Origin: Candidatus Hermodarchaeota archaeon
GTDB taxonomy: Archaea; Asgardarchaeota; Heimdallarchaeia; Hodarchaeales; Hodarchaeaceae
DNA length: 32,000 bases
Direction: 5' to 3'
Assembly (NCBI GenBank): GCA_048886185.1
Contig: JBHLKY010000003.1
Location: forward strand, 210,595 to 242,594
The notes under the pieces are model-generated. The model was not told where the DNA came from and ran no database searches. It saw only the letters and a program-made list of their open reading frames with translations. This document shows, one piece after another, positions 7,469 to 30,124 of this stretch. The translations under genes and the position numbers were made by a program. Within the stretch, counting starts at the first letter, position 1; every line of letters begins with the position of its first letter.

Positions 7469-7503
7469 AAGCTATCTGACGATAGATCCATTAAATTTTC
7501 AAC
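7469..7503 (+). repeat. Dispersed 93-bp repeat family, partial copy G
   Basis: AAGCTATCTGACGATAGATCCATTAAATTTTCAAC aligns without gaps to the family core AAGCTACCTGACGATAGGTNCGCTTAATTTCCACA. Confidence 0.6.
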
Positions 7504-7729
7504 CAGGAATGGAATTGTTCAAACAAATTATACAAATCTACAGATAACTGAAATAACTAAATTAAAGAAAACATTCAATTCTAATTCTTGTTTTAAATCA
7601 TGATATCTCACTTATAACCATTTTATCGGTCATTTTCAAAAATTCTGAATGATTAAGAATAATAGATTCAATGAATAGAAAATAGTGAAAACCTCAATAT
7701 TGTCAAATAAGGAATTATTTTCCAAATAA

Positions 7730-8272
7730 TTAGGAGCTCTTAAGAGTCTCAGAATAATTGTGAATTATAAATCGAAGTATGGATTCAAATCCATCAGCAT
7801 TTTCAGTGATCCCATAATATGCTACATGAGGAAGTTCCTCTAGAATTTCAGGTTCATCAATGTGACCTTGATTAAATTCAGTTCTTTCTAATAGCTCAAC
7901 AAAAGCGATAGGTATCGGAAATCCTTCATTTTCCTTTATTAGTTTGTTGTAAAACGTTTTAGCTGCTTTAAAGGAATAATCGTTATTCTTTGAAAAGAGT
8001 ATAATAGCCCCTTCTTTTTCGTTATAATAGGTCTTTGCGAGCTTATCAATTAGATATGGGCTTATAGGTTGCATCAAATTAATTTTAATAACTCTTTTAT
8101 TGGTTTTAAAACGAAATGAAACAATATTTAATGAAACACGGGCTTCTTGGGTTTCAATTTGATCTGGATGTTTTTGGAGGAAAGCTTGAATAATATGATC
8201 AACAGGTTTGTCAAGAAAACTAAGAATGGCAATATTAAATGTCATACCTTCAGTAGGATTATTCTTAGACAC
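7730..8272 (-). CDS. Highly degenerate Rab/Ras-like protein (pseudo-GTPase)
   Basis: Retains the scaffold (FNIAIL, IKINLM, YYNEKEGAIILFS...SF...F, PIPIAFV) but has no GxxxxGK, DxxG or NKxD. Confidence 0.7.
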   Translation of the reverse strand: MSKNNPTEGMTFNIAILSFLDKPVDHIIQAFLQKHPDQIETQEARVSLNIVSFRFKTNKRVIKINLMQPISPYLIDKLAKTYYNEKEGAIILFSKNNDYSFKAAKTFYNKLIKENEGFPIPIAFVELLERTEFNQGHIDEPEILEELPHVAYYGITENADGFESILRFIIHNYSETLKSS

Positions 8273-8328
8273 TTCTGTTCACACATATCCCATTCATAAT
8301 AAATGCCTATGAGTGATAGTTTCTTTAA

Positions 8329-8757
8329 TTTGGTTTTATACTTTTCATAGGAGTGGTGTTCTTAACAATTTCGAAACCAATGTGAATAATCGCTTTTGTT
8401 GAATGCATCCAAGGGATTTTAAAAAGTAGGCTTCTTTGATTTTCTAGACACTTGAGATGAAATATAAATGCCTCAGAGGATGAAAATGAAGAAAAATAAT
8501 CTGGTAAAAAGTGAACCCGAGTACCAAGTCTCCTCTTTACTATTGGGTTATCTTGTCTTATAATGGGAGTTATTCTGTTAGTTAACGCCTTATTCATAGA
8601 GACAGATTCTTTGGAATTTTTCTTTGCCACTTTGATCAGTGGTATCTTGGGTGGTTTAACATTGTACTTTAGAGGCCAGGGGTTTCATCTTGTTTCCACA
8701 GATGAGAGAGATAAAACTACTTATTTTGGTAGTCCTGTATTATTTCATGCTGTATGA
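8329..8757 (+). pseudogene. Remnant of a membrane-protein gene with five in-frame stops
   Basis: A single frame reads FGFILFIGVVFLTISKPM*IIAF...RLL*FSRHLR*NINAS...EEK*SGKK*TRVPSLLFTIGLSCLIMGVILLVNALF...; TM-like segments continue across four TGA and one TAA. Includes track ORF 8563-8757. Confidence 0.45.
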
Positions 8758-8891
8758 GTACTTAACCACATTCTATTCTTTCTAGTCAACTATTATGGTT
8801 TCTAAGGAGTCATCTAATTAACTTTTCATTAATCTTCCATTCAGATAATTGATTAGCTTGAATATTGTGGAAAAAATTTCATTTTTGTTAA

Positions 8892-9341
8892 CTATATAGC
8901 ACTATTTCCAATATAATCATTTAAACATTCATTACAGAGAGAATCAGCTTGCCTTATAAACTGATTTTCTCGCGTAACATAATAGAATGAGACTTTTTCA
9001 AACATAACCACTAATTCATGCACTTTTCTACATAGTTGCGACAGATGGTCTTTTTTAATCTGATAGTCCCTGTTAATTTGATTAATCACCAATTCGCTGT
9101 CAGAATACAATTTAATCTTCCCTTTCGTAAATTTTCGAGCTTCCTTGAGAGCTTCAACAATGGCAAGGTATTCAGCTTGATTATTTGTGTTTCTACCTAT
9201 GAATTTAGATCCACTATGCCACTGCTTACTATTAATTACAAAGATATATCCGATTGCAGCAGGTCCAGGATTTCCTCGTGATGCACCATCAGTAAATATT
9301 CTCAAAATTTTATTTGTAGGGATATTCAGAATGTTTGACAA
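8892..9341 (-). CDS. rnhA: Ribonuclease HI (archaeal/actinobacterial type)
   Basis: FTDGASRGNPGPAAIG, TNNQAEY, SDSELV and RENQ...ADSL motifs carry the D-E-D-D catalytic set. Confidence 0.93.
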   Translation of the reverse strand: MSNILNIPTNKILRIFTDGASRGNPGPAAIGYIFVINSKQWHSGSKFIGRNTNNQAEYLAIVEALKEARKFTKGKIKLYSDSELVINQINRDYQIKKDHLSQLCRKVHELVVMFEKVSFYYVTRENQFIRQADSLCNECLNDYIGNSAI

Positions 9342-9675
9342 AAGAAAACACTCACAATCTTACTTTATAGAAATAATAAACTTAGTCTCTTCTAACTCCT
9401 CCATAGTTCAGCCCGCTGACCAATGCCTTGACCAACTAGTTCAACACTTTCACTAAAGAATAAAAAAGCAGTAAAAAATATAACTACCACTAAAATAAGA
9501 TTTTTATTTTCTCGTTTTAAGTTTTGAAGAGTAAAAAAAATTCAAAAATATAGTGCAAAATTGCTATTTTTCAAGTTTTATAACCTGTTTTTGCATGCCT
9601 TGAAATACAAAAAGTAACTAGAAAACAAAGAAAAGCATACCAAAATCCAACTGATAACATTCTATTGGAAAATTG

Positions 9676-9712
9676 GACACTCCTCAAACTACCTGAGGTT
9701 TGGTTCGCTTAA
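9676..9712 (+). repeat. Dispersed 93-bp repeat family, partial copy J
   Basis: GACACTCCTCAAACTACCTGAGGTTTGGTTCGCTTAA: 28/37 ungapped identity to copy D. Confidence 0.7.
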
Positions 9713-9872
9713 ACCAAACTATTAGGAGATAAAATGTCTATTCTTTATTATGTTAGAAACAATATAATCTTGAGTACAAAATGCACTTTTTTCCTCCTAC
9801 CATATTTAAAAATTCAATACTAAAAAATGAGGATAGAGAGTTGGACTTCATTCATTGAAGGGGCTTAATTGA

Positions 9873-10154
9873 ATGTATCGATCCTGTTTGTATTTAATTA
9901 AAGGGGAAGAGATTCATTATTGTCTGAGGTTGAAAGAATGGAATGAACTCTGTCCACAAAGGTGTCCATTTTACAAACAGGGGGAACCAGGAAGTCTAAA
10001 AGAGGTGAAAATACAGCGATATGCCATTGATTGCCTTCAATTGACCCGATGGATCAACACAAATGATGAGGCTGAGTATTGGTGTAAAATCTACTATACA
10101 AATCGGCCCACGTGTCATAGCGAAAGTGTAAATCACTGTCGTTGGATACATTAA
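9873..10154 (+). CDS. Small Cys-rich protein, probably two tandem metal-binding modules
   Basis: 93 aa with 8 Cys arranged as two similar C...C...C..C units (CLYL..YC..CPQRCPFY and CLQL..YWC..C..CRWI). Confidence 0.7.
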   Translation: MYRSCLYLIKGEEIHYCLRLKEWNELCPQRCPFYKQGEPGSLKEVKIQRYAIDCLQLTRWINTNDEAEYWCKIYYTNRPTCHSESVNHCRWIH

Positions 10155-10417
10155 AGTCAAAAGAAACAAATAGACATTTCATTTGGAAATCTGGCTTATT
10201 TGAGTTGCAGTAAACTCCTTCTTCCAATCGAATACCCAGGTGCCTTTTGAGTGGACTAAAAAAGAAAAAAAATTTTTAAGAAGCATCCTGATATACATTC
10301 AGAATTAAATATTCCCAATTCTATAAAAAAACCCCAAAAAACTAGAGTCATACTAGATGGGTAATGAAATCACCCACAAATGCGATGTTCTATTAGAAGA
10401 CAGACGGTTCTTATTTT

Positions 10418-10447
10418 ACCTGATGATTGGCTCACCTAATTTCCATA
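10418..10447 (+). repeat. Dispersed 93-bp repeat family, partial copy K
   Basis: ACCTGATGATTGGCTCACCTAATTTCCATA: 23/30 ungapped identity to copy D; weaker similarity extends left to about 10386. Confidence 0.6.
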
Positions 10448-10506
10448 TTTCACTAGGAATTATTATCAAAAAATTAAAATGTAAAAACTTTAAAAAGAAA
10501 AAGTAA

Positions 10507-10528
10507 ATACTTTAATTCGATAAAGTAT
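10507..10528. promoter_or_regulatory. Perfect 8-6-8 inverted repeat overlapping the start codon of the wHTH-MNT gene (putative autoregulatory operator)
   Basis: ATACTTTA-attcga-TAAAGTAT; a TATA-like aaaactttaaaaag lies just upstream. Confidence 0.6.
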
Positions 10529-11276
10529 GCGTGAATTAATCGATCTCCATTCTTATGAATTATTAAAAGAATTTCAAGCCACTCCTCAGAATACATTTCA
10601 TAATTTAAACGCTATCATAACTAACACTACAACCCTAACCAACCGATTAAAGCAATTAATCTTGCTAGGAGTGTTAGAAAAAAGTAAACGTATGTACAAA
10701 TTGACAACAAAAGGAAAAAAACTCATTGATCTCCTAGATGAAGCCACACAACTTATTAAAATACCAAGAAAAGATCCCAGTCCTTTCGAAAGAATTCCAA
10801 ATACACATATCATCGAATTGTTGGAAGACTATATTATTCTCCTAAAAAGATATTTCAAGGAAACCCTTCTGTGTGTCATCTTATTCGGATCATGTGCCCA
10901 AGGAAACTGGAATGAGGAGAGTGATATTGATCTGATTATAATTGTTGAACATTGGGAGATCCCTTCTTGGGAAAAATCACGAGAACTAATTAAGGTTAAG
11001 AATAAGCTACGAAAGCGTGATACATATAAAAATTTGAGAAGGAAAGGGTATTATTTTCCCATATCACACTACCCTCTGTCAGATACAGAAATTAAAAGAT
11101 TTCATCCAATATTTTATGATGTCGTCCTAGATGGAATCATTCTTTATGAAAAAGATCAATTTGGTTCTCACCTCCTCAAACACTATCAAAAAGAACTGGA
11201 AAATAAACAAGCGAAAAGGATAATGAAACCAAACAAAAAGAGGTATTGGATACTTGAAAAAGAAAAAGGTGACTGA
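10527..11276 (+). CDS. Winged-HTH fused to a minimal nucleotidyltransferase (MNT antitoxin)
   Basis: N-terminal HxlR-like wHTH (TLTNRLKQL..LGVLEK...YKLTTKG); Pol-beta superfamily motif LFGS.....ESDIDL. Confidence 0.88.
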   Translation: MRELIDLHSYELLKEFQATPQNTFHNLNAIITNTTTLTNRLKQLILLGVLEKSKRMYKLTTKGKKLIDLLDEATQLIKIPRKDPSPFERIPNTHIIELLEDYIILLKRYFKETLLCVILFGSCAQGNWNEESDIDLIIIVEHWEIPSWEKSRELIKVKNKLRKRDTYKNLRRKGYYFPISHYPLSDTEIKRFHPIFYDVVLDGIILYEKDQFGSHLLKHYQKELENKQAKRIMKPNKKRYWILEKEKGD

Positions 11277-11679
11277 GAGATCACAACTAGCATTAAGTCG
11301 TGCACAAAACTGGCTTCAAGGCGCCCAACGAGGGAAAGAAGATCAACGCTGGGATGATTGTGTCTATAATGCCCAGATGGCCGCAGAACACGCAATCAAA
11401 GCATTATTCTTAAAATTAGGAATCATTTACAAACGAATTCATGATGTCACAGACACCTTTCGAAACATGACAGAGAATGAGGACCTTCCCAAAAAATTTC
11501 GAGAGAAGATTCCAAATATTGCAGATCAAATAGAAGAACTCACAGAACAACGAAATCTGGCAGGATATGGGTTTGAAGAGGGAATTGCTCCAGATCATTT
11601 CAAAGAATATGCACCAATCGCCTTAGATTGGGCAACTGACATTGTAACTCAGGTGGGTAATGTGTTACAAGAACTTTAA
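11269..11679 (+). CDS. HEPN domain protein (toxin partner of MNT)
   Basis: A...AQMAAEHAIKAL...HDV...RNLAGY pattern; the GTG start at 11269 overlaps the MNT stop (GTGACTGA), implying translational coupling. The track ORF starts at 11254. Confidence 0.88.
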   Translation: MTERSQLALSRAQNWLQGAQRGKEDQRWDDCVYNAQMAAEHAIKALFLKLGIIYKRIHDVTDTFRNMTENEDLPKKFREKIPNIADQIEELTEQRNLAGYGFEEGIAPDHFKEYAPIALDWATDIVTQVGNVLQEL

Positions 11680-11740
11680 TCTAATATTATCCCATGCCTC
11701 CTATTATAACACAAAAAATCAGATCATTTCTTTAGTACTG

Positions 11741-11785
11741 GAAGCGTGACACTCCTGAAGCATCCTGAAGAGAGGATTTCCTTAA
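11741..11785 (+). repeat. Dispersed 93-bp repeat family, partial copy F
   Basis: GAAGCGTGACACTCCTGAAGCATCCTGAAGAGAGGATTTCCTTAA shares GAAG..TGACACTCCTGAAGC with copy A and the downstream blocks with copy C (1-nt insertion). Confidence 0.7.
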
Positions 11786-12081
11786 AAATCTGGATACATT
11801 AAGATTCAGCCCATTGGGTGTTGGAAAATTCGATAGCCCGAAGAATAGTTTGATTCAAGAAATCTTGTTCCTGACAGTCGAAGGTATACATCACAAATCC
11901 ATCATACGTAAAAAAGAAGATACGCTTAACATGATAGATAATGGTAGGACGAGCAATTTCAACTAAATCCAGAAATTATTTTCTGCGAAATTTAAATCGA
12001 TAGGAGCTGGTATGAATTGATGCAGCAGTGGCTCCAGCTGCGCCTGCATTATAAGCTATTTAGAGTTAATATCTGTTTTAA

Positions 12082-12237
12082 AATAGTAAAAGCGGTTTTG
12101 TATATATCCATGGAGGTGGGAACTCAATAGGAACCGCTGCTACAGTTGACTATTATGGTAATGCGGTAGCAGGGAAATCTAACTTATTATATACAAAGCA
12201 TATGGATCTGAGAACTGGCCCCGCTGATCCAACGTAA
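12082..12237 (+). pseudogene. Short remnant resembling a type-B carboxylesterase N-terminal region
   Basis: The frame reads GFVYIHGGGNSIGTAATVDYYGNAVAGKSNL...RTGP, like the esterase VYIHGGG..G.A..Y.G..LA.K.N...RLGP segment. It is bounded by stops and has no start codon. Confidence 0.4.
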
Positions 12238-12381
12238 AGGCCTTAAGCAGCAGTTCGTGAGCTTGGAAGAAGATTTTGGAAAAAATAGAATCTCCTATTT
12301 TCAGGCGAGGACTAGACACTAAGTTTGTATTCCTAGGCGAGATTTTTAAACTCAAAATGCAGACAAAAGGGAGTTTTTCGA

Positions 12382-12390
12382 TTATATAAA
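12382..12390 (+). promoter_or_regulatory. Archaeal TATA box upstream of the 881-aa gene
   Basis: TTATATAAA ends 35 nt before the ATG at 12425. Confidence 0.5.
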
Positions 12391-12424
12391 GACAGGAGAG
12401 AATCTATACCAGAGGCATCCAGCA

Positions 12425-15070
12425 ATGCTTAGAGATATGCTCATCCACGCACCTCGAGAAGAATATGGCCGACGAATGAAACTAGTATGGAAAGTGTTAG
12501 AAGATAAGTCAACACTCTTCGTGATGCAAAAACCAAATTATAACAAAATGGAAGTGCCTTGGGCTCCACTAGCGGAAATGGTATCAATTTTTGCCATCCA
12601 GCCAAGGAGAGATTTCACAAATGCAGCGAAAACGTTGTCACTAGTGAATAATGAAGAAGGAGTGGTAGTAGTAAAAGAAGTATTCCCTGTACAGAAAGTT
12701 AACTCAAAATATAATGACAAAGAGGTTTCTGATACGGCTGTTCTTACCTTGGTTTTCGCTTTTACTCAATTCTGGGTCAAATCAGATAGTTTGCTACCTC
12801 TACTCGCACAGGAGGCCCGAAAAAAGCTTGCCCGAAAGCGCTCAACAACTCACTCTATACTTAAAGGGAGCGGATTTAAAGTAATGTTAATTACCGAGGA
12901 CAAGCTTAGTCAAATCTATTTCCGTAGAGGGAAAGTCCCCGAGGGCATCACGGTCTTTAAGAGCCATAAAGGGTTTCATTCCAAATTATCGGATCTATTC
13001 CTCAGACTTAATCGAGTTCCAACACGGGAAATCCAGGAATACCCGATCCCTGACCTAGCTGTGACCCACAAAATCGGAAACCAAAGACAAAATCCAAAAC
13101 GACCAGTTGGGTTCCCACCATTAACCACAGGCCCCGTGTTGGTGTGTGGTTCAGATAAGTATGAAGTGATAAGAGTAATACAACAGCTGATCAATTCAAT
13201 ACGAACCGTAGGAACATCCAAACAGATATTTATACTTGACACCCACAGTGAACTGAACGGCCTCATACATCACATCCACAGGTATCCCCAACGGGCAATT
13301 CCATTACAGGTGTTTCGGTTAGGTACCAATATCCACCTCAACCTCTGTGATGTGATAGTCCCAACAACTCCCATGGGAGAACAGCAAGAACGAAAGGCAT
13401 GGGCAGCATGGAAATCACACCTCATTAGCCAGATCTTACTGAGTTCACTACACACATCAGAATATCTGACAGCCCGATATGCAGTGCCATTGGAAGCTCA
13501 AATCAGGAAAACAGCGGAAAAAAATCACCTGTTCACACTCAAAGACGTGAGTCTTAGCTTTGGGGGAATGAACGAACCCCATGTTCAGGAAAACACTGAT
13601 GAAACCAATATGATGTATGCAGATATGATGGCCATCGAGGCAATCGTGGGAGTCTTGGAGCAGTTTCGCTCATTTCCTGAAGTGAACTATCCCTCCTTTA
13701 CAGGACATTATGGAAATACCTTGGTAGGGGAAGAAACACTGACAGTATTCCAGTTTGGTACTCAACCTCCACTGATACGGCAAGCAACCGTGGGATTCCT
13801 CCTCCACTACCTCTCACAAACCATGAAAGATGGATGTGTAGTTCTAACACACGCTCCCGAGTTTCTGAACGCGCAATCCACGTATAAACGAGAGCGAAAA
13901 ATTAGTAGCTCAATTACCTTAGAAGCATGTGATACAATCGCTGCACAAAATGTCCTTATACTTGCAAGTCAACGACTACTGGAAATGATGAACGACGAGC
14001 TGTTTGATGGTATAAAAAATATATTGTACTTACCCCTGATGAATGAACAGGATAGACGACTCGTGATCACACGTCACGAATTGAAGCTAAAAACTCACAA
14101 CCAGCAGGATCGAAAAAGCCAATCTTTAGGAATTACGGAAGGTGAAGGATTGTTGTTCCGCGAAGACGCACCACAAAACATAGGATTCCATGTGAAACTA
14201 GATACAGCAATCCCAATCGATCTGAACCCGATTCATGTAAGTGAAACAAAACAACGGGGTTCTGAAACATTCGGACTCCCCCCTCTGAAATATGAATTAC
14301 TCATGAAAATATTAAAATTATTAGTTAACCATCCGAGTCGTACGGAAGACATTTTAGACCTACTAGAAACAACGAAACAACGAGAAATCTCTCTAAACCA
14401 ATTCCAATCACTCGGATTATTCACGACAGAGACAGATCGAGGAGCGACCTATTGGGTCATCACAGACAAAGGACGGGAATATTACTCGAAACAACACGAT
14501 TTTGTGAACCAACTGCCCGCCCCATTGACAAAGGGAGAAGTCGGACGCGTTCCCGAGGAATTAAAACGTTTAGAATCGTTCAATGATATTTCCTCCTCGT
14601 ACGATGAGCGATTGGAGACCAATAGGAAAGTGAAAACACTCATTGGGAAGCTTCTCAATTATACCCAACAACTGCGCGCGACCTCCATACCATGGATGCG
14701 GGTTGGGGAATATCATGACCTACTCATGATCGAGGCGTTGGAATGGCAAGATTTTCGGAACCTATTCGATCTGGCACACACCATGGTCAATAATCTGTTG
14801 TTGGAAATTACCCAACTGCAAAAAGAACAGTCAGATAAGGAAATCCAAGCACGTCTAGAAGCAGCCGCCCTACAAGTCGACCCAGCCAAAAAAAATCTGT
14901 CCGACTACTTACCTGAGGAGAACTATCTTCGTCTACAACACCTCTCGCAAGAGTTCGGTCTACCATCTTACCCCAGCACAGGAATTCTTGATCTATACTA
15001 TACTCTCCATACACAAAGACGTTCTTTAATTGGCGAACTGGGAAAAAGCTGGAAAATAAATGACAAATAA
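12425..15070 (+). CDS. HerA/VirB4/TrwB-like (DUF87-type) ATPase-fold protein with degenerate Walker A/B, followed by a winged-helix and a helical tail
   Basis: GPVLVCGSDKYEV (Walker A position, no GK[ST]); IFILDTHSEL (HerA-like DxHGEY); CVVLTHAPEF (Walker B position, no DE); LILASQR (sensor); YWVITDKGREYY (wHTH wing). Confidence 0.65.
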   Translation: MLRDMLIHAPREEYGRRMKLVWKVLEDKSTLFVMQKPNYNKMEVPWAPLAEMVSIFAIQPRRDFTNAAKTLSLVNNEEGVVVVKEVFPVQKVNSKYNDKEVSDTAVLTLVFAFTQFWVKSDSLLPLLAQEARKKLARKRSTTHSILKGSGFKVMLITEDKLSQIYFRRGKVPEGITVFKSHKGFHSKLSDLFLRLNRVPTREIQEYPIPDLAVTHKIGNQRQNPKRPVGFPPLTTGPVLVCGSDKYEVIRVIQQLINSIRTVGTSKQIFILDTHSELNGLIHHIHRYPQRAIPLQVFRLGTNIHLNLCDVIVPTTPMGEQQERKAWAAWKSHLISQILLSSLHTSEYLTARYAVPLEAQIRKTAEKNHLFTLKDVSLSFGGMNEPHVQENTDETNMMYADMMAIEAIVGVLEQFRSFPEVNYPSFTGHYGNTLVGEETLTVFQFGTQPPLIRQATVGFLLHYLSQTMKDGCVVLTHAPEFLNAQSTYKRERKISSSITLEACDTIAAQNVLILASQRLLEMMNDELFDGIKNILYLPLMNEQDRRLVITRHELKLKTHNQQDRKSQSLGITEGEGLLFREDAPQNIGFHVKLDTAIPIDLNPIHVSETKQRGSETFGLPPLKYELLMKILKLLVNHPSRTEDILDLLETTKQREISLNQFQSLGLFTTETDRGATYWVITDKGREYYSKQHDFVNQLPAPLTKGEVGRVPEELKRLESFNDISSSYDERLETNRKVKTLIGKLLNYTQQLRATSIPWMRVGEYHDLLMIEALEWQDFRNLFDLAHTMVNNLLLEITQLQKEQSDKEIQARLEAAALQVDPAKKNLSDYLPEENYLRLQHLSQEFGLPSYPSTGILDLYYTLHTQRRSLIGELGKSWKINDK

Positions 15071-15315
15071 GGGAATGATTGAAAAAATTAGACTCTTGGC
15101 TACTATGAGGCAAGGTGACCTGTAATCAAATACTTTATCTTAGAATATGCCCAGGTACCTTTTAAACAACTGAATTCAACCTATTCATGGGATATCTATA
15201 ATTCTGGATAATAAAACTTCTTATAGTTCTGATTCAAAGTGACAAAGGGAGTACCAATATGGTATGGCTCCTTCATATAAGGATAGTTGAAATGAGAGAC
15301 ATCTTCTTGGGAATC

Positions 15316-16368
15316 TTATTTTTTGGAAAAAGCCTGAAAACGCTTTAATACAGGGATTGAGACCAAAACTGCCACGAGAGTAACGAATCCTGATCGCCAG
15401 GTAATTCCAGAAGAAAAATCAGTTGATTCCGAGACAATGGATTCATGGGTCACGCCAGAAACAAAATCCGTTGTTTCAGTGAGCTTGGATTCAAGAGTAA
15501 CGGAAGGAGTTATGGACTGATCAAAATAATGAAAAATCAGTGTATTTGTGAAATCTAATAATGAGTCGAGAAAAGAACTCGCAACAGGGATGGTACAGAT
15601 ACGTTGCCCTGAACAGGTATCATCATCAACCCGCTCGCGTATTTTTGTTTGCAAAGTTGCATTCCAAGTAATGGTCAGAGTATTCTGATATCCCCCTCCA
15701 TCACACATAGCATCTGGAGTCCAATACTTCCAAGATTGCCACCGGTGGGCTAGATTAGTCAGTAAATAATTACACCACTCTCCCCATTCAGAATACAAAA
15801 TCTTTACTCGAAGAGAAAAGGGGGACGGATAAGGAAAATAGTCAGGGTTAAGATCTTGATAGTTATATCCATAATTTAAGAATTTATAGTCTATAAACGC
15901 TGAACCATTAGCAAAGTAAGAAGCACTCAAACGACTCGCACCGAACCAGCAATTAAATTTATCATACACAAGCTGTAACTTGACAGGCCCATCTACAGGG
16001 AGGGGAGGAGAAGACCAGGATAGATTATATAGACCAATGAGGTTAGAGTTAACAAAAAAAGCTATACTCCCACTCCCATCCGAAGATAGGGGAGTATCGA
16101 ACCAATATAAGCGTCTTGCTCCCGAAGAGAGCGCGAGAGTGTCACTAAAGCCCCATGACGTGAGAATAGAGACATTGAGAGCTTAATCCTTTGTTACAAG
16201 GAAAATGGGAAAAAATTGTGTTGTGATAACATTATTAACCATCCAAGTGATCTCAAACTCCTCAGAGGTTAATGTCATGGTTTCTAAGTCGCCTTTAGAC
16301 CAGATTAATAAGCCCGAGAGAAAGATACCAACAATAAAAATTGAAAAAATGGCACGGGACCCCCGTAT
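15316..16368 (-). pseudogene. Interrupted gene for a secreted, C-terminally anchored surface protein (351 codons)
   Basis: The track ORF 15316-15969 continues upstream in frame through one TAA (16183-16185) to a signal peptide [ATA]RGSRAIFSIFIVGIFLSGLLIWSKG. The ATA at 16366-16368 sits 8 nt after AGGAGG, so it is probably a mutated ATG. The C-terminus is S/T-rich + SGF + TM + KR. Confidence 0.75.
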
Positions 16369-17466: not shown

Positions 17467-17475
17467 CGTGTACGA

Positions 17476-18126
17476 TTAGTGGTCTTTAGATTTATTTCGT
17501 CGTTTTAGCAGCACAAAGGAAGTACAGAGAAGAAGAAGAAACTGCCATCTAAGTGAAGAACTAGTCGTAATCGTGGCTAATTCAGTCGTGGTTGAGGTAA
17601 AACGTGAGGAAGTAGGTAATGGCCAGGTGGGGAGACTGTGAAAAAGACCCTGGGAACTGAATGAAGTCCAGAAAATACCCATGTTTACAGTTGTGATCTT
17701 TACATAAAATAGTCCATCATCTATGAAATTAGTGTTCGACGATCCGTTTATAAGAAAAGCGTGAGAGTTACCAGACAAGAGTGTGATAGAGGGGGATAAA
17801 TCAATAATTACACGAGTATAATTCCAAGTTTGGCCATAGGAAGTGATTACCTGAGTAATTTCAAGCTTGGTTAATTCAGTTGGGATCTCACCGTTATAAT
17901 GGAGACGAAAAACTACTTGTCGAAAGGAAGGGATATCACCAGGACTAATAGTACCAGTATAATTGGGGGGAATGGGTACTCCAATATCACACATAAAATC
18001 TAAATGGCCAACAACCTCTCCCTGAAATACTGAATCCGTACCAGTAACAGAACCAATGAAAAGTAAAAAAGTACAACTGAAAAGGCATATTTGGAGGAAA
18101 AAGAGTGGACGGGCTTCCATTTTCAT
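17476..18126 (-). CDS. Hypothetical secreted protein with a Thr/Ser linker and C-terminal TM + basic tail
   Basis: N-terminal hydrophobic signal; ends TTTTELATITTSSSLRWQFLLLLCTSFVLLKRRNKSKDH. Confidence 0.8.
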   Translation of the reverse strand: MKMEARPLFFLQICLFSCTFLLFIGSVTGTDSVFQGEVVGHLDFMCDIGVPIPPNYTGTISPGDIPSFRQVVFRLHYNGEIPTELTKLEITQVITSYGQTWNYTRVIIDLSPSITLLSGNSHAFLINGSSNTNFIDDGLFYVKITTVNMGIFWTSFSSQGLFHSLPTWPLPTSSRFTSTTTELATITTSSSLRWQFLLLLCTSFVLLKRRNKSKDH

Positions 18127-18220
18127 TCACTCCTCACTCTAGGGATAATATCGGGGAAGAATTATATAAAATTTGTTATTCCCGAAAGAATTCCATTTCC
18201 CAAAAATAAATCAAAAGCCT

Positions 18221-18311
18221 ACAGAGATTAGACCGAACCTGCTCTAACAGAAGCTACTAACTCCTTACAACCATCTGAGACAAGAAACATCTCAATTTTC
18301 ACCTAGTCGCC
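18221..18311 (+). repeat. Dispersed 93-bp repeat family, copy B (degenerate 3' half)
   Basis: ACAGAGATTAGACCGAACCTGCTCTAACAGAAGCTACTAACTCCT matches the left half of copy E; the right half is more diverged. Confidence 0.8.
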
Positions 18312-18467
18312 ATTATACGATTAATGGGATACAACTTTAAACAATTAAACTCAGTTAACAAAAGATCCTAAACAGTTAGTACAAGCTGAATTTTAACATA
18401 ATTTCCCCATGAAGCGAGGTTACAACTTTTCAAACTTAAAAGATTCTTGGAAAGGAAAACCGCAATA

Positions 18468-19349
18468 ATGAAACGTGTAATTATCAATATGGATCCTGGA
18501 ATGGGAGTAAAGTATCGGGACATAGATGATGGTATAGCACTCCTTTATCTCATGACTTCACCTGATATTTCAATTGAAGGTATTACAATCAATTTTGGAA
18601 ATACTCCTTCAGAACAGGGGTATCAGATAGCACGAACACTTCTAAAGATGACAAAAAGCACTATTCCTTTATTTAAGGGATCACAATCAAAGGCTGACTT
18701 GGGAAAACTCAATCCCTCAGTTGAATATTTAATAAAAACAGTGATTGAAAATCCAGGAGAGATTTCTTTATTAGCTACAGCACCCCTGACCAATATTGCA
18801 ACAGCAATGATGTATGAAGAGGAATTTATGGACAATCTATCTGACCTAATTATTATGGGAGGGACATTAAAATTCAGACCATTTTCATTTTTTGGAGAAT
18901 TTAATTTCCACTTAGACGCTAAAGCAGCAGCATTAGTATGTACAACCCCTATTCATAAGACATTAATTACTATGGATGTCTGTTCACAAACCGTTTTCCA
19001 ACAACAGCATTTAAACAAGCTAAAACAAAAAACGACAATTGTTTCCAAATATCTAATGAAAATTATTCCTCATTGGTTGGAACTAAACAAAAAAATTTTT
19101 TGGAGGGCCAAAGGGTTTTTTCCATGGGATGTAGTAGCTGCGCTTTATTTAACAGATGACCATTTATTTGATAGGAACCCATACACTTTGTCAATTCGTG
19201 AAACTGGTGTCCGCTCTGGTAGTATTCAAAATGTCATCCCCCGTGATAGTTTTAAGTCAATTAATGGACGGATACCCCTTAATATTCCTCTTCAGTTGAA
19301 ATACAATTTGGCTATGGAAAAAATTATCTCCACATTATATGACTTTTAA
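18468..19349 (+). CDS. Inosine-uridine-preferring nucleoside hydrolase family protein
   Basis: MDPG...DIDDGIAL, GEFNF..D..AA and PWDVVA motifs. The ATG at 18468 is likelier than the TTG at 18447 used by the track. Confidence 0.9.
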   Translation: MKRVIINMDPGMGVKYRDIDDGIALLYLMTSPDISIEGITINFGNTPSEQGYQIARTLLKMTKSTIPLFKGSQSKADLGKLNPSVEYLIKTVIENPGEISLLATAPLTNIATAMMYEEEFMDNLSDLIIMGGTLKFRPFSFFGEFNFHLDAKAAALVCTTPIHKTLITMDVCSQTVFQQQHLNKLKQKTTIVSKYLMKIIPHWLELNKKIFWRAKGFFPWDVVAALYLTDDHLFDRNPYTLSIRETGVRSGSIQNVIPRDSFKSINGRIPLNIPLQLKYNLAMEKIISTLYDF

Positions 19350-19403
19350 CATACTAGAAGCTAAATTGATAAGAGATATTTTTTCCTTAATTTAGATTTC
19401 GAA

Positions 19404-19496
19404 GTTAAACACAGACCGAATGCTCTCTACTTGAAGCAAACGACTCCTGAAGTTATCTGACGAAAGGCCCACTTAATTTCCGCACGACTAGCCCTT
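19404..19496 (+). repeat. Dispersed 93-bp repeat family, near-full copy C
   Basis: 19413-19496 is 64/84 identical, without gaps, to copy D (24061-24144). Confidence 0.88.
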
Positions 19497-21119
19497 ACGC
19501 CTTCGGATTACATTCACTAATGTCACTACAAATAATGTGATGACACCCATTTCAAAAATCTGGAGAAAAAATTGCAGCAATGAGGGAAATCCTGGGGAGA
19601 TGAAGTGAGAACCGCTCGATGAGCTGCATGAGGAAATCATTGCCTTGGTTGTAGTATTGATAAAGCCATTATCAGGTGTGGGTTGGATTGAAGAATGAGG
19701 AGACAAAATATTAGACGTAGGGTCTCCATTCTCAAATATAAAGATAGCTCCAGAGGTGGTTGCATACCAAAAGCCTTGAGTACAACTAGCATTGACTCGG
19801 ATGAGATACTGAGTTCCATTCCCCACAGTGGTACTATCCCAGATATATGACGTTGTGCTGAGGTTTGCAATTAAGATGATCCAGGAGATGCCCTTATCTG
19901 TGGAATAGGAAACCAAATAAGTGATTGGATGACTATTTAAATCAGTTGCAGGAGTCCATTGGAGTGTGATGTTCCCTGAAAAAATTGGTCCACCGCTAGG
20001 ACTAATGATTACAGCAGGTAGGAGATGATAGGGAGTAACTAAAGGCGAAAGATCTGAATTAGTTTCTATTCCTGGAATGGGATAAGGTTGATCAACAATC
20101 CCATCCATATTAGCATCAGGAGTGATCCAGTCATCCCAAAAGTTATCTGAAAAATGATTATTTGAACCCTGGTCTGCCGTTTGGGATCCCCCCCTATTAT
20201 TTCCTAAGAACATATTGGCTTGAATCTTGTTGTTATTACTTCTATGTGTAAGCTCCACCCCATAATCACTGTTGTTGGCAAAATAGTTGCCAGAGAGAAT
20301 ATTTCTCGAAGATTGAAGGTAAATACCACTTCCACTGTTGTTAATGATCATGTTTCCAGACAGGATACCATATCCAGAACCATCTAGGTAAATACCAAGC
20401 TCATTATTGTTACTAATGGTATTTCCCGTCAACAGACAATATATACCAACTAGATCAATTCCCCAATAATTATTGGAAACAAAGTTGTTGGATAAAGAGA
20501 TACCCCTAGATTGAAGAATTTGAATACCCATTTCAGTGTTATTAGCGATAATGTTACTTGATAAATGAGTATTAACACAGAAACGAAGGACAATTCCTCT
20601 TCCATTGATATTAGCGATAGTATTATTAGACATACCGATATTTTCAGAGTAGCTAATAAAAATTCCAAAGCCGTGATTAATGACTATATTCGACAAAATG
20701 TATCCATTTGTAACATTCTGAAAATAAATACCATAATATCCGCCATTTAAAACACAATTGCGGATTTGAAAATAAACATCAGTATTACTAATTTCTATCA
20801 ATCTCCTGGTTGGGTAGCCAGTAATATTAAGACCATCAATGATGAACGGAGCTGACGGGGTTCCCTCTCCAGTCCAGTTCTCTTCTTCTATAAGAGTTTT
20901 GAACTCTTCATTTCCATTAATTGAGAGAGGTGAATGGATTACATGTTGAATTAAGACTGGAGTAGATGGTTGGTTATTATTTTTCCCAATGTTGATTCTT
21001 GAAGACCATCCAGAGGACATCACATTAATTGGACAGAGAAAAGAAATGAAAAACAGAATCACTGAGATTTTGGTAAAAAACATTTTACTATGAATGAGCT
21101 GTTTTAACTCTAGGTACAA
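19488..21119 (-). CDS. NosD-like right-handed beta-helix surface protein with an FnIII-like domain and C-terminal anchor
   Basis: GEGT...PFII, many parallel beta-helix repeats (GI.L..S.N....N.I.NN), N.WDDW, an FnIII-like ITLQW...Y.V.YS segment, SPGF + TM + RRRKG. Confidence 0.88.
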   Translation of the reverse strand: MYLELKQLIHSKMFFTKISVILFFISFLCPINVMSSGWSSRINIGKNNNQPSTPVLIQHVIHSPLSINGNEEFKTLIEEENWTGEGTPSAPFIIDGLNITGYPTRRLIEISNTDVYFQIRNCVLNGGYYGIYFQNVTNGYILSNIVINHGFGIFISYSENIGMSNNTIANINGRGIVLRFCVNTHLSSNIIANNTEMGIQILQSRGISLSNNFVSNNYWGIDLVGIYCLLTGNTISNNNELGIYLDGSGYGILSGNMIINNSGSGIYLQSSRNILSGNYFANNSDYGVELTHRSNNNKIQANMFLGNNRGGSQTADQGSNNHFSDNFWDDWITPDANMDGIVDQPYPIPGIETNSDLSPLVTPYHLLPAVIISPSGGPIFSGNITLQWTPATDLNSHPITYLVSYSTDKGISWIILIANLSTTSYIWDSTTVGNGTQYLIRVNASCTQGFWYATTSGAIFIFENGDPTSNILSPHSSIQPTPDNGFINTTTKAMISSCSSSSGSHFISPGFPSLLQFFLQIFEMGVITLFVVTLVNVIRRRKG

Positions 21120-21216
21120 ATTCTTCCCATCTCAATAATCAGGAATTAGCTTTTCTACTATAAGAAGATTCTGAAAATGAAGAAATATGTTAGAAATTCT
21201 TTAGCTAAAATGGGTA

Positions 21217-22035
21217 TCAAATTTCTTTAGAAAAGGGTTTGTCCTTAAACAACTCTGATCTAGCTTTTAATACTTTTAGAGTTAAATCGTAAAAAATTTG
21301 GCTAGTAATTTTTTTATCGCTTGGTTTAATCTCATAATACGAAAATCCCATCTCTTCTACTAGTGACTGTTCATCTGTAATAATCTCTTCAAAAAGCTCT
21401 TCTTTAGTAGGATGTAGAGACCTGTCGTTTTGAATCTTGAGAAAAGTGGGTGTATAAACCTCCTTCATGATAAATCCTACTATTGCAATAGGAATTGAAA
21501 GGTGAATACTTTTAATTTCTTTGTACCAATCGTTCACTGCATTGAAAGAATCTCTATTGCTCTTATCAAAAGTAATAACAGCTGCTGATCCATGATAATA
21601 ACTTAGTTGGCATTTTCTAAAAAACTCTTGACTAGCTATATCCATGAGTATTAGCTTAATATTGTTACCATCTACCTGAATCTGTTTGGTCATAATGTCC
21701 ACTCCCTGAGTAGGTAAATGATTAGTAGTAAATTTCCCTTCAGCATAGCTCCGAACCCAGTTATTCTTCAACTCACTTGGATAACCTATTAGACAGATTT
21801 TCAACAATTCTTTAGGGGGATAACAAGCCTTACAGGCCAAATTTAAACACTTAATTTTCTCTCCCCTTCTGTTTCTAAAAAACTCTTTGAATCTAGCCCC
21901 ACAAAACAAACATTCTTGCCGTCTAATCCACCCTCTTTGTGAAATTAAGGTGATACAGAACTCACACGTGTGTCTTTGACAGCGAGAACACTGAATAAGA
22001 AAAGTATCCCTTCCACAGATCTGGCATTGATTCAT
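21217..22035 (-). CDS. Cys8 zinc-finger (FYVE-like spacing) fused to a Rab-like pseudo-GTPase
   Basis: N-terminus C-x2-C-x8-C-x2-C-x4-C-x2-C-x14-C-x2-C. The GTPase domain has PTQGVD, TKQIQVDGNNIKLILMDIASQE and YYHG..A..FD...SF, but the P-loop reads GYPSELKN and G4 reads GFIMK. Confidence 0.82.
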   Translation of the reverse strand: MNQCQICGRDTFLIQCSRCQRHTCEFCITLISQRGWIRRQECLFCGARFKEFFRNRRGEKIKCLNLACKACYPPKELLKICLIGYPSELKNNWVRSYAEGKFTTNHLPTQGVDIMTKQIQVDGNNIKLILMDIASQEFFRKCQLSYYHGSAAVITFDKSNRDSFNAVNDWYKEIKSIHLSIPIAIVGFIMKEVYTPTFLKIQNDRSLHPTKEELFEEIITDEQSLVEEMGFSYYEIKPSDKKITSQIFYDLTLKVLKARSELFKDKPFSKEI

Positions 22036-22260
22036 ATTTTCCCTTCTTTTATATATCCAACAAAATTCCCTTTTCGTAATTTAAGGTGCCTATTGTAATA
22101 AAAGATTATCTCGAGAATCTCTCAGAGTTTCTAGAAGATATTTCCTCGATTTTGAACTGGAGATAAGAAATTTCTAATTTTTTGTCGGAATTCCAACATT
22201 ATTCCCTAAAATACAATCTTATCAGACAGAAACCAAATCATTTCTGCTTTAATTGAAATA

Positions 22261-22333
22261 AACGACTTATAAAGCCACCAGACGATAGCTTTTCTCATAA
22301 ATCTTAATTTCCACAATTTTTAAGAAAATTAGC
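22261..22333 (+). repeat. Dispersed 93-bp repeat family, partial copy H with the variant palindromic right end
   Basis: AACGACTTATAAAGCCACCAGACGATAG is 23/28 identical to copy E; a short insertion follows, then CTTAATTTCCACAATTTTTAAGAAAATTAGC. Confidence 0.75.
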
Positions 22334-22559
22334 ACTTGAACTCAATGAACATTATTGTTTAGAGACATTTCGAAAGCGTTTCAGTATAGAGATTAAGACT
22401 AACACAACTAAAAGAGGGATGAATAAGCCTTTTATACTTGATAGGTCCTATTATCATAAACAATTACATCAGTTAGCTGAAACGAGACCCATAGGGAGAC
22501 AGGACAACCAGAATCTGTTATTACAGCAGAATTATTGATGCCAAACATATCGAAATAGT

Positions 22560-23201
22560 ATGGATGAAAACATTATGATAAGAACGGAAGGGTTTCTTCA
22601 ATGGATTGAAGAGAGTTTTACAAGCCCACAGGAGTTTAGACTGACTTATTCAGGGGAATTACCATATGGACGGAATTTCAATCTCCGTTTTAAGAGAACT
22701 AGTTCATTAATGAAAGGAAATCAATGGTACCTTTTCAAAGCATTACCCTCAGAACTAACTGTTGAAACAGCTTATCAGCTTGCAGTGGAAAGAAATCAAG
22801 TAATAAAAGGAAAAAGCAAAATTCTCAAATTTTTAGTGGATTTTCTCGTGTTTATCTATGTCTCTGAGAAATCCATACCTCAAAATGTCTTGGATTGCCT
22901 TGGAAATTTCTATTCGGTGAAAAAAAGGCATTTTCAGAATGTTCATGAAGTGAACTTCTTTCTAGATACTTCAACTGGATATTACACCAAACCCAAACGA
23001 ACAGGGTATTTTGGGTGGATTCCGTTAAAGAGATTGATAGGAGAGGTTGAAAGGTTTATTTTTGAACCTTACAACCAATGGATTCAGTCAAATCAAGGAA
23101 GTAAGGAACAAATCGCAAACTTTTGTCATAATTGTGGACAAAAAAACACTGACAAGTATAAATACTGTGAGAAATGTGGAGCGAATCTCGTGTCCCAGTA
23201 A
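22560..23201 (+). CDS. Hypothetical protein with a C-terminal double zinc ribbon
   Basis: Ends CHNCGQKNTDKYKYCEKCGANL (CxxC-x10-CxxC). Confidence 0.8.
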   Translation: MDENIMIRTEGFLQWIEESFTSPQEFRLTYSGELPYGRNFNLRFKRTSSLMKGNQWYLFKALPSELTVETAYQLAVERNQVIKGKSKILKFLVDFLVFIYVSEKSIPQNVLDCLGNFYSVKKRHFQNVHEVNFFLDTSTGYYTKPKRTGYFGWIPLKRLIGEVERFIFEPYNQWIQSNQGSKEQIANFCHNCGQKNTDKYKYCEKCGANLVSQ

Positions 23202-23226
23202 CATAGAGAACATACCAAAACAAAAC

Positions 23227-23245
23227 CAATTTTTCAGAAAATGAG
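23227..23245. repeat. Third copy of the palindrome CAATTTTT-N-AGAAAAT-K-AG found at the right end of copies I and H
   Basis: caatttttcagaaaatgag vs caatttttgagaaaattag (17447) and caatttttaagaaaattag (22314). Confidence 0.4.
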
Positions 23246-23334
23246 TATTGGCGCGATTAGTGTTAAACATGTTGGTCGAAATTATTGTCCAAAATCTCAA
23301 TTCTAAAGAAAAATCACGAGGTTAACAAAGGTTA

Positions 23335-23356
23335 TATATCTATATATGTAGATATA
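23335..23356. promoter_or_regulatory. Perfect 8-6-8 inverted repeat overlapping the vapBC TATA box (putative operator)
   Basis: TATATCTA-tatatg-TAGATATA, overlapping aaaggTTATATAT and ending 12 nt before the antitoxin ATG. Confidence 0.6.
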
Positions 23357-23368
23357 GACTGAAGAAGA

Positions 23369-23611
23369 ATGGTATCTAAAACAATCTCAGTAACCGAAGA
23401 GGTATATATGCTCCTCAAACGAATGAAATTACCTCACGAAAGCTTTGGAGAGACGATCGAAAGATTATGCAAGAATTTTACAACAGAAAACTTGCTAAAA
23501 TGGTATGAAAACACAGATGGGTGGAAAGACATGACTAACGAGGAGTTCCATGAAATCGATGAGGTAATAACAGATTTCGGAAAGAATTTTAAGCCCCAGA
23601 AAGCGGATTAA
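23369..23611 (+). CDS. vapB: Archaeal VapB-family antitoxin (DUF217-like)
   Basis: KTISVTEEVY..LK.MK...ESF...I.RL signature; lies immediately upstream of a PIN gene. Confidence 0.88.
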   Translation: MVSKTISVTEEVYMLLKRMKLPHESFGETIERLCKNFTTENLLKWYENTDGWKDMTNEEFHEIDEVITDFGKNFKPQKAD

Positions 23612-23613
23612 CA

Positions 23614-24027
23614 ATGATCTTGGTTGATAGTACATTTTTAATTGATGCATTACGAAAAAAGCCCAATGTGCGAAAATTCCTACAAAAAAATCCAACAGAG
23701 ATATTATTTACGACAGAAATAAATGTTTTTGAGTTATATCTAGGATTACATTCAAGTAAGATCCTAGAAAAAGAGGTAGCTCTTTTCGCAAAACGAAAAC
23801 AACCTCTGGAAGAATTGATCACGAAATTCCAAGTACTCTCATTTAGAAGAGGGGAAGCAATAGAATCAGCAAAAATTCTAGGAAAACTGTATAGATCGGG
23901 GAAACCAATTGAGTTTCGTGATGGGCTAATTGCAGGGATAGCTATTGCAAATGGTATAAAGAAAGTACTGACAAGGAATACTGACCATTTTAGACGAATT
24001 AAAGAGATTGAAGTACTATCCTATTGA
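23614..24027 (+). CDS. vapC: PIN-domain VapC toxin
   Basis: ILVDSTFLID, E (VFELY), D.LIAGIA and LTRNTDHF PIN motifs. Confidence 0.92.
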   Translation: MILVDSTFLIDALRKKPNVRKFLQKNPTEILFTTEINVFELYLGLHSSKILEKEVALFAKRKQPLEELITKFQVLSFRRGEAIESAKILGKLYRSGKPIEFRDGLIAGIAIANGIKKVLTRNTDHFRRIKEIEVLSY

Positions 24028-24051
24028 AGACAAAAACACACTAAAAAGTGG

Positions 24052-24144
24052 ACAGATGTTAGACCGAAGGCGCTCTAGCAGAAATAAAGGACTCTTTAAA
24101 CTACCTGACGAAAGGTTCGCTTAATTTCCACACGGGGAGCCCTT
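24052..24144 (+). repeat. Dispersed 93-bp repeat family, full copy D
   Basis: ACAGATGTTAGACCGAAGGCGCTCTAGCAGAAATAAAGGACTCTTTAAACTACCTGACGAAAGGTTCGCTTAATTTCCACACGGGGAGCCCTT; begins 25 nt after the vapC stop. Confidence 0.88.
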
Positions 24145-24590
24145 GGAGCAGCTAAAAAAGGATATTACTTTGTTTGAGACTTTTGAATAATACCTACGAC
24201 CATTCCAAGGAAAAATAAGACAGCTGCGGTATTCTGAATATGATATCCAGTAAATGACGGAATAACAGGTTTGGAATTACTCCTAGTAACCTCCACAACA
24301 ATATGGCGCTTAAGACTTCCGTTATGAATCAGAATGTTTGAATAATAATTACAGGAACCAGAACTATCGTGTTAAAAAGAAGAAGAATCATTCCAAAGAC
24401 AGCTGCTAGGATCAAACCCCTCTTTGATTTCACCCAACGCGCCACTCAAATATTGGATGATTCATTAGAATAATAAAAGGCTGTCGAATAGTAAGTTCTA
24501 TTCTCAGGACAGATACAACATTACACGACGTCAAACAGAAAGAGAGGGAAAGACAACAGTGTTACCATAATGAAATCGACCTTTTCATGA
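24145..24590 (-). pseudogene. Possible decayed membrane-protein gene
   Basis: Minus-strand frames give TM-like segments (GLILAAVFGMILLLFNTIVLVPVIIIQTF*; TAAVLFFLGMVVGIIQK) broken by several stops and a frameshift; no family recognised. Confidence 0.3.
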
Positions 24591-24724
24591 GCTTGAAGAA
24601 TTAGTACAAGAATTTTTTGACTTATAAGACACTTTCTTTTTACCTATTAGTTTTATTCTGAATGGATTATTGGTTCTTATTGCTTATTGGTGAGATCTTC
24701 TTGATACTCCATTTATCACTGAAG

Positions 24725-25204
24725 TTAACCAGCCACTGCCAAATATCTGTCATAAACCCACCATACAATAAAAAATACACCAAAAATTATCCAATCAATA
24801 ATCCAGAAGAGGGGAATCGGGAAATCAATTTGAAAAAGATCCCATAAGGGGGTCCAGAGTGGATCACCGAATTTCCATGTACCTTGAAAAAGGGCCTTAG
24901 TCAGCCAGTGGCCAATATCTTGAAAAAATTGGACTAAAAAAGCACCACCAATAGTCAATAACCAATCAGTTTTCTCTCGGGTGAGGAATGGAACGATAGA
25001 TAACATCAAAAAAATAAAAAACGCGTAAAGCATCCAATAGAACGGAAAATTATGGAGTTCATAATCCAAATAATAGACAAATGCCTGGGCTTCAATACCT
25101 CCAAGTAGTAAGGCAATCAAACCAGCCCAAATGATAATTATAGCCTTATCAAATCTATCCAAGTCGATACGACGATTTTTCATTGCAGTTACACCTGATT
25201 TCAA
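24725..25204 (-). CDS. Hypothetical polytopic membrane protein (about 4 TM)
   Basis: 159-aa ORF dominated by hydrophobic segments; the start may be the internal MKNRRI. Confidence 0.75.
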   Translation of the reverse strand: MKSGVTAMKNRRIDLDRFDKAIIIIWAGLIALLLGGIEAQAFVYYLDYELHNFPFYWMLYAFFIFLMLSIVPFLTREKTDWLLTIGGAFLVQFFQDIGHWLTKALFQGTWKFGDPLWTPLWDLFQIDFPIPLFWIIDWIIFGVFFIVWWVYDRYLAVAG

Positions 25205-25391
25205 ACAATAGTTATCAGTTTGAAATAATTGATTATAATTATAAGTGATTACTGCTGAAAAAAAGTGAAAAAAAGATAAAATCTAGTAAAAAAACACCTA
25301 TTGTATTTTCCCCAAACCTCCATAAAATATGATTAGCAATGAAGGAAACACGTGAATTTAATAATTTACCCGAAAAAAAGACATAAAGCGT

Positions 25392-25453
25392 ACAGATATT
25401 AGACCGAAAGCGCTCTCAGAGAAGCTAACGACTCCTGAAGCCACCTGACGATA
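25392..25453 (+). repeat. Dispersed 93-bp repeat family, copy E (3'-truncated)
   Basis: ACAGATATTAGACCGAAAGCGCTCTCAGAGAAGCTAACGACTCCTGAAGCCACCTGACGATA, the copy closest to consensus; similarity stops abruptly after GACGATA. Confidence 0.88.
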
Positions 25454-30085: not shown

Positions 30086-30124
30086 TTATCAACCTTAATC
30101 ACAAGCTATAGAGGAACATCGAGT

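Follow-up and report, generated by a model that had tools for sequence, protein, structure and literature searches.

A repeat matching the 23S rRNA tail separates gene cassettes that turn over individually in a genus of Asgard archaea

We analysed a 32,000-nt stretch of DNA (the window) from a Candidatus Hermodarchaeota archaeon of the family Hodarchaeaceae (GenBank assembly GCA_048886185.1, contig JBHLKY010000003.1, positions 210,595 to 242,594), in which an intergenic repeat recurs on one strand between small groups of unrelated genes. By its sequence, this repeat is a reverse-complemented copy of the terminal ~32 nt of 23S rRNA and of ~100 nt of 3' trailer, the latter including one strand of the processing stem and the T-rich terminator. 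A first-pass annotation of the window had recognised no family matching the repeat; it matches the 3' end and trailer of 23S rRNA on the opposite strand. Comparisons with relatives establish this 23S-tail origin, the anchoring, in relatives, of arrays of copies on the 23S gene, the fixed orientation of the copies and the turnover of individual cassettes. On balance, the arrangement is probably the product of orientation-fixed cassette accretion and exchange at an attachment site in the rRNA tail, effected by a trans-acting recombinase and resembling the formation of tandem islands at tRNA genes.

A profile built from five long copies was searched against both strands with nhmmer, and matches to an extended profile were counted at E ≤ 1. 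In the window, the profile recovered all 11 copies reported in the first-pass annotation, at 7469, 9633, 10387, 11736, 16470, 17362, 18213, 19403, 22244, 24044 and 25385. All 11 are on the + strand (E-values from 1e-28 to 5e-3), and no copy was found on the - strand of the window. In a separate repeat search of the window, the reported positions fell into direct-repeat families without an inverted counterpart, and no inverted-repeat pairs bounding the copies were detected. The description of the element as a strand-polarised, non-coding DNA repeat is borne out, as is the contention that it does not act simply as a promoter, terminator or riboswitch for neighbouring genes.

Across the whole assembly (4.84 Mb, 96% complete), we found 22-28 matches, all on the + strand, with the extended profile giving 28 in the genome and 0 in the reversed genome used as a control. 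We refer to the genome under study as G000 and to other genomes by other G numbers; C denotes a contig, and C3 carries the window. The family is confined to a 35-kb island, C3:218063-253394 (16 copies), and to the 11.7-kb contig C46, which has 8-11 copies all along its length; weak profile matches were also seen on contigs C7 and C71. The C3 island consists of the window from 7469 onward plus 11 kb past the window end, and a maximally sensitive search revealed no further copy on C3 to the left or right of it. The repeat is an island feature, not a chromosome-wide one. Of 21 genomes in the genus, 17 carried the DNA family, as against none of 20 from outside the genus. Across relatives, orientation was uniform in each of the 16 contigs with at least two copies, which together hold 117 copies.

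The repeat unit spans about 130-150 bp, running from an A-rich edge, CCCGAAAA.., to ..GCGATTAGTGG. It is read here on the + strand, the rRNA sense being the - strand, which is the strand given for the array and its copies in Table 1. In the rRNA sense, the unit begins with ~32 nt of the 23S 3' end, continues through a ~55-nt spacer that contains the most conserved block and through the processing-stem strand, and closes with the T-rich terminator. Copies contain blocks of 20-25 nt that are conserved at 90-100%, whole copies being mutually only about 60-80% identical. Three details of the first-pass description need revision. The unit is longer than the ~93 bp claimed, seven window copies are full or nearly so rather than five, the one at 22221-22340 only partly, and the alignment is not free of indels, as some copies carry an optional 17-19-nt palindrome or an insert of ~10 nt. 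The observation that the copies share no consistent hairpin stands. Eleven long copies gave no consensus fold on either strand (RNAalifold), and a covarying hairpin, CCT-GACGAT-AGG, that had been suspected from a few copies was rejected, since its pairs (109 distinct copies) did no better than shuffled ones, at 39 of 93 against an expected 38. Conservation lies in sequence blocks.

Individual copies also vary in other ways. The optional palindrome is AT-rich (AATTTTT-nnn-AAAAATT) and replaces ~5 nt in the 23S-derived part; it occurs in the window at 17442-17482 and 22306-22340, and beyond it at C3:251336, C46:6301 and C46:10113. Two copies past the window end, C3:244137-244193 and C3:253015-253073 (window coordinates ~33543 and ~42421), have a normal trailer half up to ..GACTCCTGAAG and then share a different ~90-nt sequence, so that they represent either hybrids or a second type of site. 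Apparent truncation classes, in which profile matches start near 45, 80 and 120, correspond to the limits of conserved blocks and may be artefacts of local alignment; we did not take them as evidence of crossover.

The rRNA origin emerged from relatives in the same genus. Matches to the large-subunit (LSU) rRNA model RF02540 that are limited to model positions 2721-2973 sit within repeat arrays; they overlap the ..GATTAGTGG end of the repeat and are on the other strand from it. In G005 (contig C44), a genuine 23S 3' half at 405-2075 (RF02540 positions 1423-2973) runs into a repeat-profile match on the opposite strand at 2139-2050, and 3.7 kb further on a second copy shares 86% identity across the final 28 nt of 23S and 155 nt of trailer. 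In G008 (contig C8), 28 co-oriented copies extend across a 54.7-kb contig whose end is 23S sequence. This terminal 23S sequence continues upstream beyond the point at which orphan tails stop, and the copy adjoining it scores 114 bits (E 5e-34) against a profile made only from G000 copies. In both relatives, the array starts directly behind a real 23S gene and in the orientation of that gene. The position of the 23S 3' end, transferred from a full-length 23S gene (G001:C57), falls within the motif ..AATTTCCAC.., which is conserved. In two genus members, the 23S leader has a sense match to profile positions 39-71, as predicted by a leader-trailer processing stem, and BLAST against full 23S genes confirmed the 23S identity. 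The copied segment has recurrent limits: short copies show a sharp 23S-side boundary, between ..GATTAGTG and G, at about -32 nt, and 12 of 13 long orphan tails, from 9 genomes, have theirs at about -335 nt.

The window itself gave no match in an Rfam 15 scan at E ≤ 1, and neighbouring loci likewise gave none. The search against Rfam suggested in the first-pass annotation therefore yielded no covariance-model match in the window, and the rRNA link came from the relatives instead. The missing LSU match is accounted for by the 23S-derived piece, which at 32 nt is too short for the LSU model. At three loci, cmscan with permissive filters also returned no Rfam match, despite LSU tail matches of 160-220 bits in the genome search. 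No tRNA or tmRNA was found in the window. Queries made from a genome's own 23S tail identified direct copies behind 23S in another genus of the class, four in G037 (C98:102201-122200) and one in G025 (C95); these copies consist of the 23S end and ~35 nt of trailer and lie within 17 kb behind 23S. The same kind of query found no copy within 20 kb in six other genomes outside the genus. Separately, the terminal 23S sequence of G008 contains a ~320-nt insertion relative to G005 (C8:54309-54628, equivalent to L016:14309-14628), ~40 nt upstream of the point at which long orphan tails start; it may represent an expansion segment or an intron.

Intervals between copies contain 1-3 genes each, unrelated to one another and on either strand. 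Their products include an RNase H-like protein, an MNT-HEPN pair, PIN toxins, a flavin reductase, a nucleoside hydrolase, beta-helix surface proteins, Ras-family GTPases, a SnoaL cyclase and an HNH nuclease, alongside many open reading frames (ORFs) without a family. Single cassettes recur in other species at 85-95% identity with different neighbours, and a VapBC-like pair is common to G008, G017 and G003. The MFS transporter gene at 6082-7434 (-) of the window, which seems to flank the array, is a cassette in G003:C49, where its counterpart (87% amino-acid identity) has repeats on both sides and bears the same truncated copy as that at window position 7469; where the array really ends distally is therefore uncertain. 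In an independent estuary metagenome, the flavin-reductase cassette is bypassed, a contig there linking 16558 to 17474 by way of a single hybrid repeat, and another metagenome sample contains only the cassettes at 21.4-25.0 kb, at 99% identity. This metagenomic evidence is weak, consisting of contigs only, and joins that go back or skip far, mostly involving other repeat copies, were not counted. Collectively, comparison of cassette sequences and their neighbours indicates that cassettes turn over individually between species.

Ras-family GTPases are the commonest cargo, with 21 copies in 5 genomes, 20 of them in the rRNA sense. Together with the closest protein-atlas clusters, they indicate an Asgard archaeon of the Heimdall group. 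Relative to the repeat, paralogous cargo genes were uniformly oriented in 32 clusters and mixed in 8, a tally that is not an independent count as the members of a cluster are kin. The Ras GTPase genes are found at 7730-8272 and 21217-22035 of the window, at C46:10245-10811, in G008:C8 and elsewhere. Several unrelated pairs of toxin-antitoxin type (MNT-HEPN and VapBC-like) also occur as cassettes, at 10527-11679 and 23369-24027 of the window and at L001:1733-2643 and L016:3712-4424; in one toxin-antitoxin cassette, the PIN ORF runs into the next, degenerate repeat.

Table 1. Repeat copies and cassettes in the window (window coordinates unless a contig is given; the strand of a repeat copy is that of its rRNA sense).
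Feature	Position	Strand	Remarks
Cassette array	7469..32000, on to C3:253394 (window coordinate ~42800)	-	16 copies in C3, 11 in window
Partial copy (profile 54-143) with optional palindrome	22221..22340	-	
Partial copy (profile 96-128) adjoining MFS gene start	7469..7505	-	
Degenerate copy	9633..9719	-	Window search E 1.7e-6
Weak degenerate copy	10387..10447	-	E 0.005
Partial copy, central block only	11736..11784	-	E 4.7e-5
Full copy, exemplar	16436..16616	-	
Exemplar: A-rich edge, a T-run terminator in the rRNA sense	16456-16474		
Exemplar: processing-stem strand	16475-16493		
Exemplar: most conserved block, GACTCCTGAAGCCAnCTGACGATAG	16516-16540		
Exemplar: complement of last ~32 nt of 23S rRNA	16552-16583		
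Full copy with optional AT-rich palindrome (17442-17482) inside 23S-derived part	17321..17507	-	
Full copy	18179..18345	-	
Full copy; 23S-derived end overlaps stop region of beta-helix gene 19488-21119(-)	19369..19539	-	
Full copy; 23S-derived part 24126-24157, diverging past ..GCCCTTGG	24009..24185	-	
Copy with trailer part clear up to ..CTGACGATA; 23S-derived part diverged	25348..25531	-	
Cassette block: Ras-like remnant, 101-aa ORF, RNase H-like protein	7730..9341	-	
Cassette: nucleotidyltransferase (MNT) and HEPN pair	10527..11679	+	
Single-gene cassette, flavin reductase-like	16629..17231	-	Common to G012:C336 at 78%, other context
Single-gene cassette, inosine-uridine nucleoside hydrolase	18447..19349	+	
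Cassette block: zinc-ribbon protein, 80-aa ORF, PIN-domain toxin	22560..24027	+	
Single-gene cassette, 159 aa, no family	24725..25204	-	92% identical to G008:C8 cassette with different neighbours

A recombination or capture site, one of the roles proposed in the first-pass annotation, remains the best reading of the repeat. We propose that the 23S tail and trailer would serve as the attachment site, at which circular or linear DNA carrying its own copy of the segment would recombine in one fixed orientation. Such recombination would restore a working 23S end, processing stem and terminator, and the displaced copy would come to lie beyond the new cassette. Through a succession of events, together with exchange at any existing copy, cassettes would pile up into an integron-like array, with the recombinase acting in trans. 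A copied segment of this length fits a requirement that all sequence downstream of the crossover be replaced, and the conserved blocks of orphan copies are probably recognition sites of the recombinase or the homology that it uses.

Several observations weigh against this accretion and exchange at the rRNA tail. No recombinase lies beside any array in six genomes (G000, G008, G003, G012, G017 and G015): PF00589 matches in G000 are on C4, C27 and C70, with none on C46 or near the C3 array, and the array contigs of the other five genomes have none. The recurrent cargo families lack a recombinase fold, and no circular intermediate or attP-bearing element was found. The conserved core was not found in IMG/VR viral contigs, and metagenome contigs added further arrays, with neither an integrase nor an attP-bearing element among them. 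The blocks that species share are often the size of a gene, with the repeat not consistently bounding the same side, and the crossover point could therefore not be located. Decay of copies with distance from the 23S side was not significant (rho 0.32, p 0.10 in G008:C8; other arrays were mixed). Finally, G000 has no assembled 23S gene, the link to 23S being evident only in relatives, and on C3, 4 kb of ordinary-looking genes lie between the last repeat and the end of the contig.

A bolder possibility, which we advance tentatively, is a dedicated gene-capture system that evolved in Asgard archaea independently of integrons, in which a trans-acting recombinase would recognise the conserved 23S-trailer blocks, inserting or excising cassettes of a single gene there. 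In the archaeal lineage closest to eukaryotes, the rRNA operon would then end in a regulated platform for acquiring genes horizontally. One candidate enzyme would be the host XerA-like tyrosine recombinase, which is conserved and present in every genome checked (in G000 at C4:43052-43534, E 7e-46); the other would be an unrecognised enzyme acting with an array-linked protein of ~515 aa that has tandem winged-helix units.

The ~515-aa protein family has no Pfam match. All 21 genomes in the genus encode it, each in 1-10 diverged copies, and none of 20 from outside the genus does. Members include G000:C3:204398-205918 (+), 4.7 kb to the left of the window start, L020:208-1758, L021:10711-12315 and 30 more. 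The family is strongly enriched in or beside repeat arrays and, among the 19 of its loci where a repeat is present too, lies on the + orientation of the repeat in 18; in 4-5 cases, the gene starts 131-233 nt from the 23S-side end of a copy. An AlphaFold model (pLDDT 91) comprises an N-terminal helical bundle and tandem Lrp/AsnC-like units (NirDL, Z 12.5, residues 148-510). We rejected its assignment to a known recombinase as the fold resembles tandem units of Lrp/AsnC type, and, judged from the model, the protein looks DNA-binding rather than a recombinase.

General homologous recombination between copies is a serious rival, albeit one that we regard as rather unlikely. It shares the 23S-tail origin and dispenses with a site-specific enzyme: the ~150-bp copies would provide portable homology for RadA-type recombination and unequal crossing-over, which would duplicate, delete and import cassettes. 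The lack of an integrase near the arrays agrees with this, as do shared blocks without a fixed crossover point, and direct orientation would follow automatically from recombination between direct repeats. The highly conserved short blocks could seed pairing, and hybrid repeats do exist, as in the 16558/17474 join and the alternative 3' half shared by C3:244137 and C3:253015. However, copies as diverged as these are a poor substrate for homologous recombination, and the boundaries at -32 and -335 nt, both sharp, reappear in 9 genomes beside unrelated cargo. The persistence of conserved blocks in orphan copies that no longer serve rRNA also suggests selection of a site rather than drift.

It is improbable that the copies are kept mainly as rRNA terminators or insulators, with T-runs between cassettes downstream of a very strong promoter and the repetition a by-product of selection. 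Every full copy does end in a T-rich run in the rRNA sense, and the rRNA-sense genes at 16629, 17476 and 19488 stop 0-50 nt from a copy. Yet such a role leaves unexplained how copies are generated, why a 32-nt piece of the 23S coding sequence persists in them alongside the processing-stem strand, and why cassettes of opposite orientation are flanked alike. It may nevertheless add selection for keeping copies that arose otherwise.

Two further explanations have very little to recommend them. The uniform strand is the sole point in favour of the other roles suggested in the first-pass annotation, a replichore-oriented protein-binding site or fork-biased insertion of an HUH element (IS200/IS605 type); the sequence is rRNA-derived, the family occurs only inside cassette islands (one island and one small contig in 4.84 Mb), and G000 has no match to Y1/HUH (PF01797), TnpB (PF07282) or serine recombinase (PF00239). 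Equally implausible is a classical integron or a cluster of attC sites lacking an integrase (CALIN), with the repeats as attC sites: co-oriented sites do split small unrelated cassettes that include toxin-antitoxin pairs, but no array checked has an adjacent IntI-type recombinase, the repeat has neither a consensus hairpin nor covariation, cassette genes face both ways and the site is an rRNA tail.

If accretion and exchange at the rRNA tail is correct, Asgard archaea have an integron-like route by which to acquire and shuffle single accessory genes without an integrase or attC sites, with cargo in this genus that includes Ras-type GTPases, toxin-antitoxin pairs, hydrolases and surface proteins. 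Its landing pad would be the end of the large rRNA gene, so that site-directed gene capture would gain rRNA 3' ends as a new class of target and probably a new enzyme. The same process would account for the hypervariable islands of these genomes and for the poor assembly of rRNA loci in these metagenome bins. The repeat offers a simple sequence handle for finding such islands, which bear on the study of both mobile elements and archaeal genome evolution.

The literature searched contained no description of rRNA-tail cassette arrays, and a paper on Heimdallarchaeum mobile elements describes integration at tRNA sites only. The arrays differ from IS200/IS605 elements, other transposons and miniature inverted-repeat transposable elements in having no match to a cognate transposase and no bounding inverted repeats. 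Use of the large-subunit rRNA gene as a safe, conserved landing site would be a feature in common with the rDNA-specific mobile elements of eukaryotes, the R1 and R2 retrotransposons and Pokey. Those elements insert inside the 28S coding region and carry their own enzymes, and they form no cassette arrays behind the gene. Modules without an integrase that exploit a host recombinase are known from the integrative mobile elements exploiting Xer (IMEX) at dif and from the pdif modules of Acinetobacter plasmids. The cassettes described here similarly lack their own recombinase and are bounded by copies of a site, in genomes that encode a XerA-like recombinase where checked. Dif-like sites comprise two inverted arms of ~11 bp around a spacer of 6-8 bp; nothing in the repeat was recognised as such a 28-bp palindromic site, although no search with a dif sequence of this lineage was made.

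Co-oriented sites, small unrelated cassettes, toxin-antitoxin pairs and content that differs between relatives are all shared with integrons and CALINs. The attC sites of those systems are imperfect inverted repeats (R''-L''/L'-R') that form a hairpin, with structure conserved rather than sequence. Unlike those systems, the arrays have no intI, attC hairpin or covariation, their genes face both ways, and the site is conserved in sequence and derived from rRNA. A closer parallel in mechanism is provided by the tycheposon-built islands of Prochlorococcus, which grow by tandem accretion at the 3' ends of tRNA and tmRNA genes, with newer elements pushing older ones outward and leaving partial direct copies of the gene between modules (bioRxiv 10.1101/2020.12.28.424599). 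Derivatives of such islands without an integrase are comparable too. In both cases, a stable-RNA gene is targeted in its 3' part, direct partial copies lie between modules, and content varies between strains. An intact gene heads the published islands; in the relatives G005:C44 and G008:C8, a 23S gene stands in that place in the orientation of the copies, whereas G000 has no assembled 23S gene. The arrays differ in having as target the 23S tail with ~100 nt of trailer rather than a tRNA, in a repeated segment of 130-490 bp where those islands have ~40 bp, and in modules that lack an integrase and are mostly single genes. The arrangement would work like tandem accretion at tRNA and tmRNA genes while looking like an integron.

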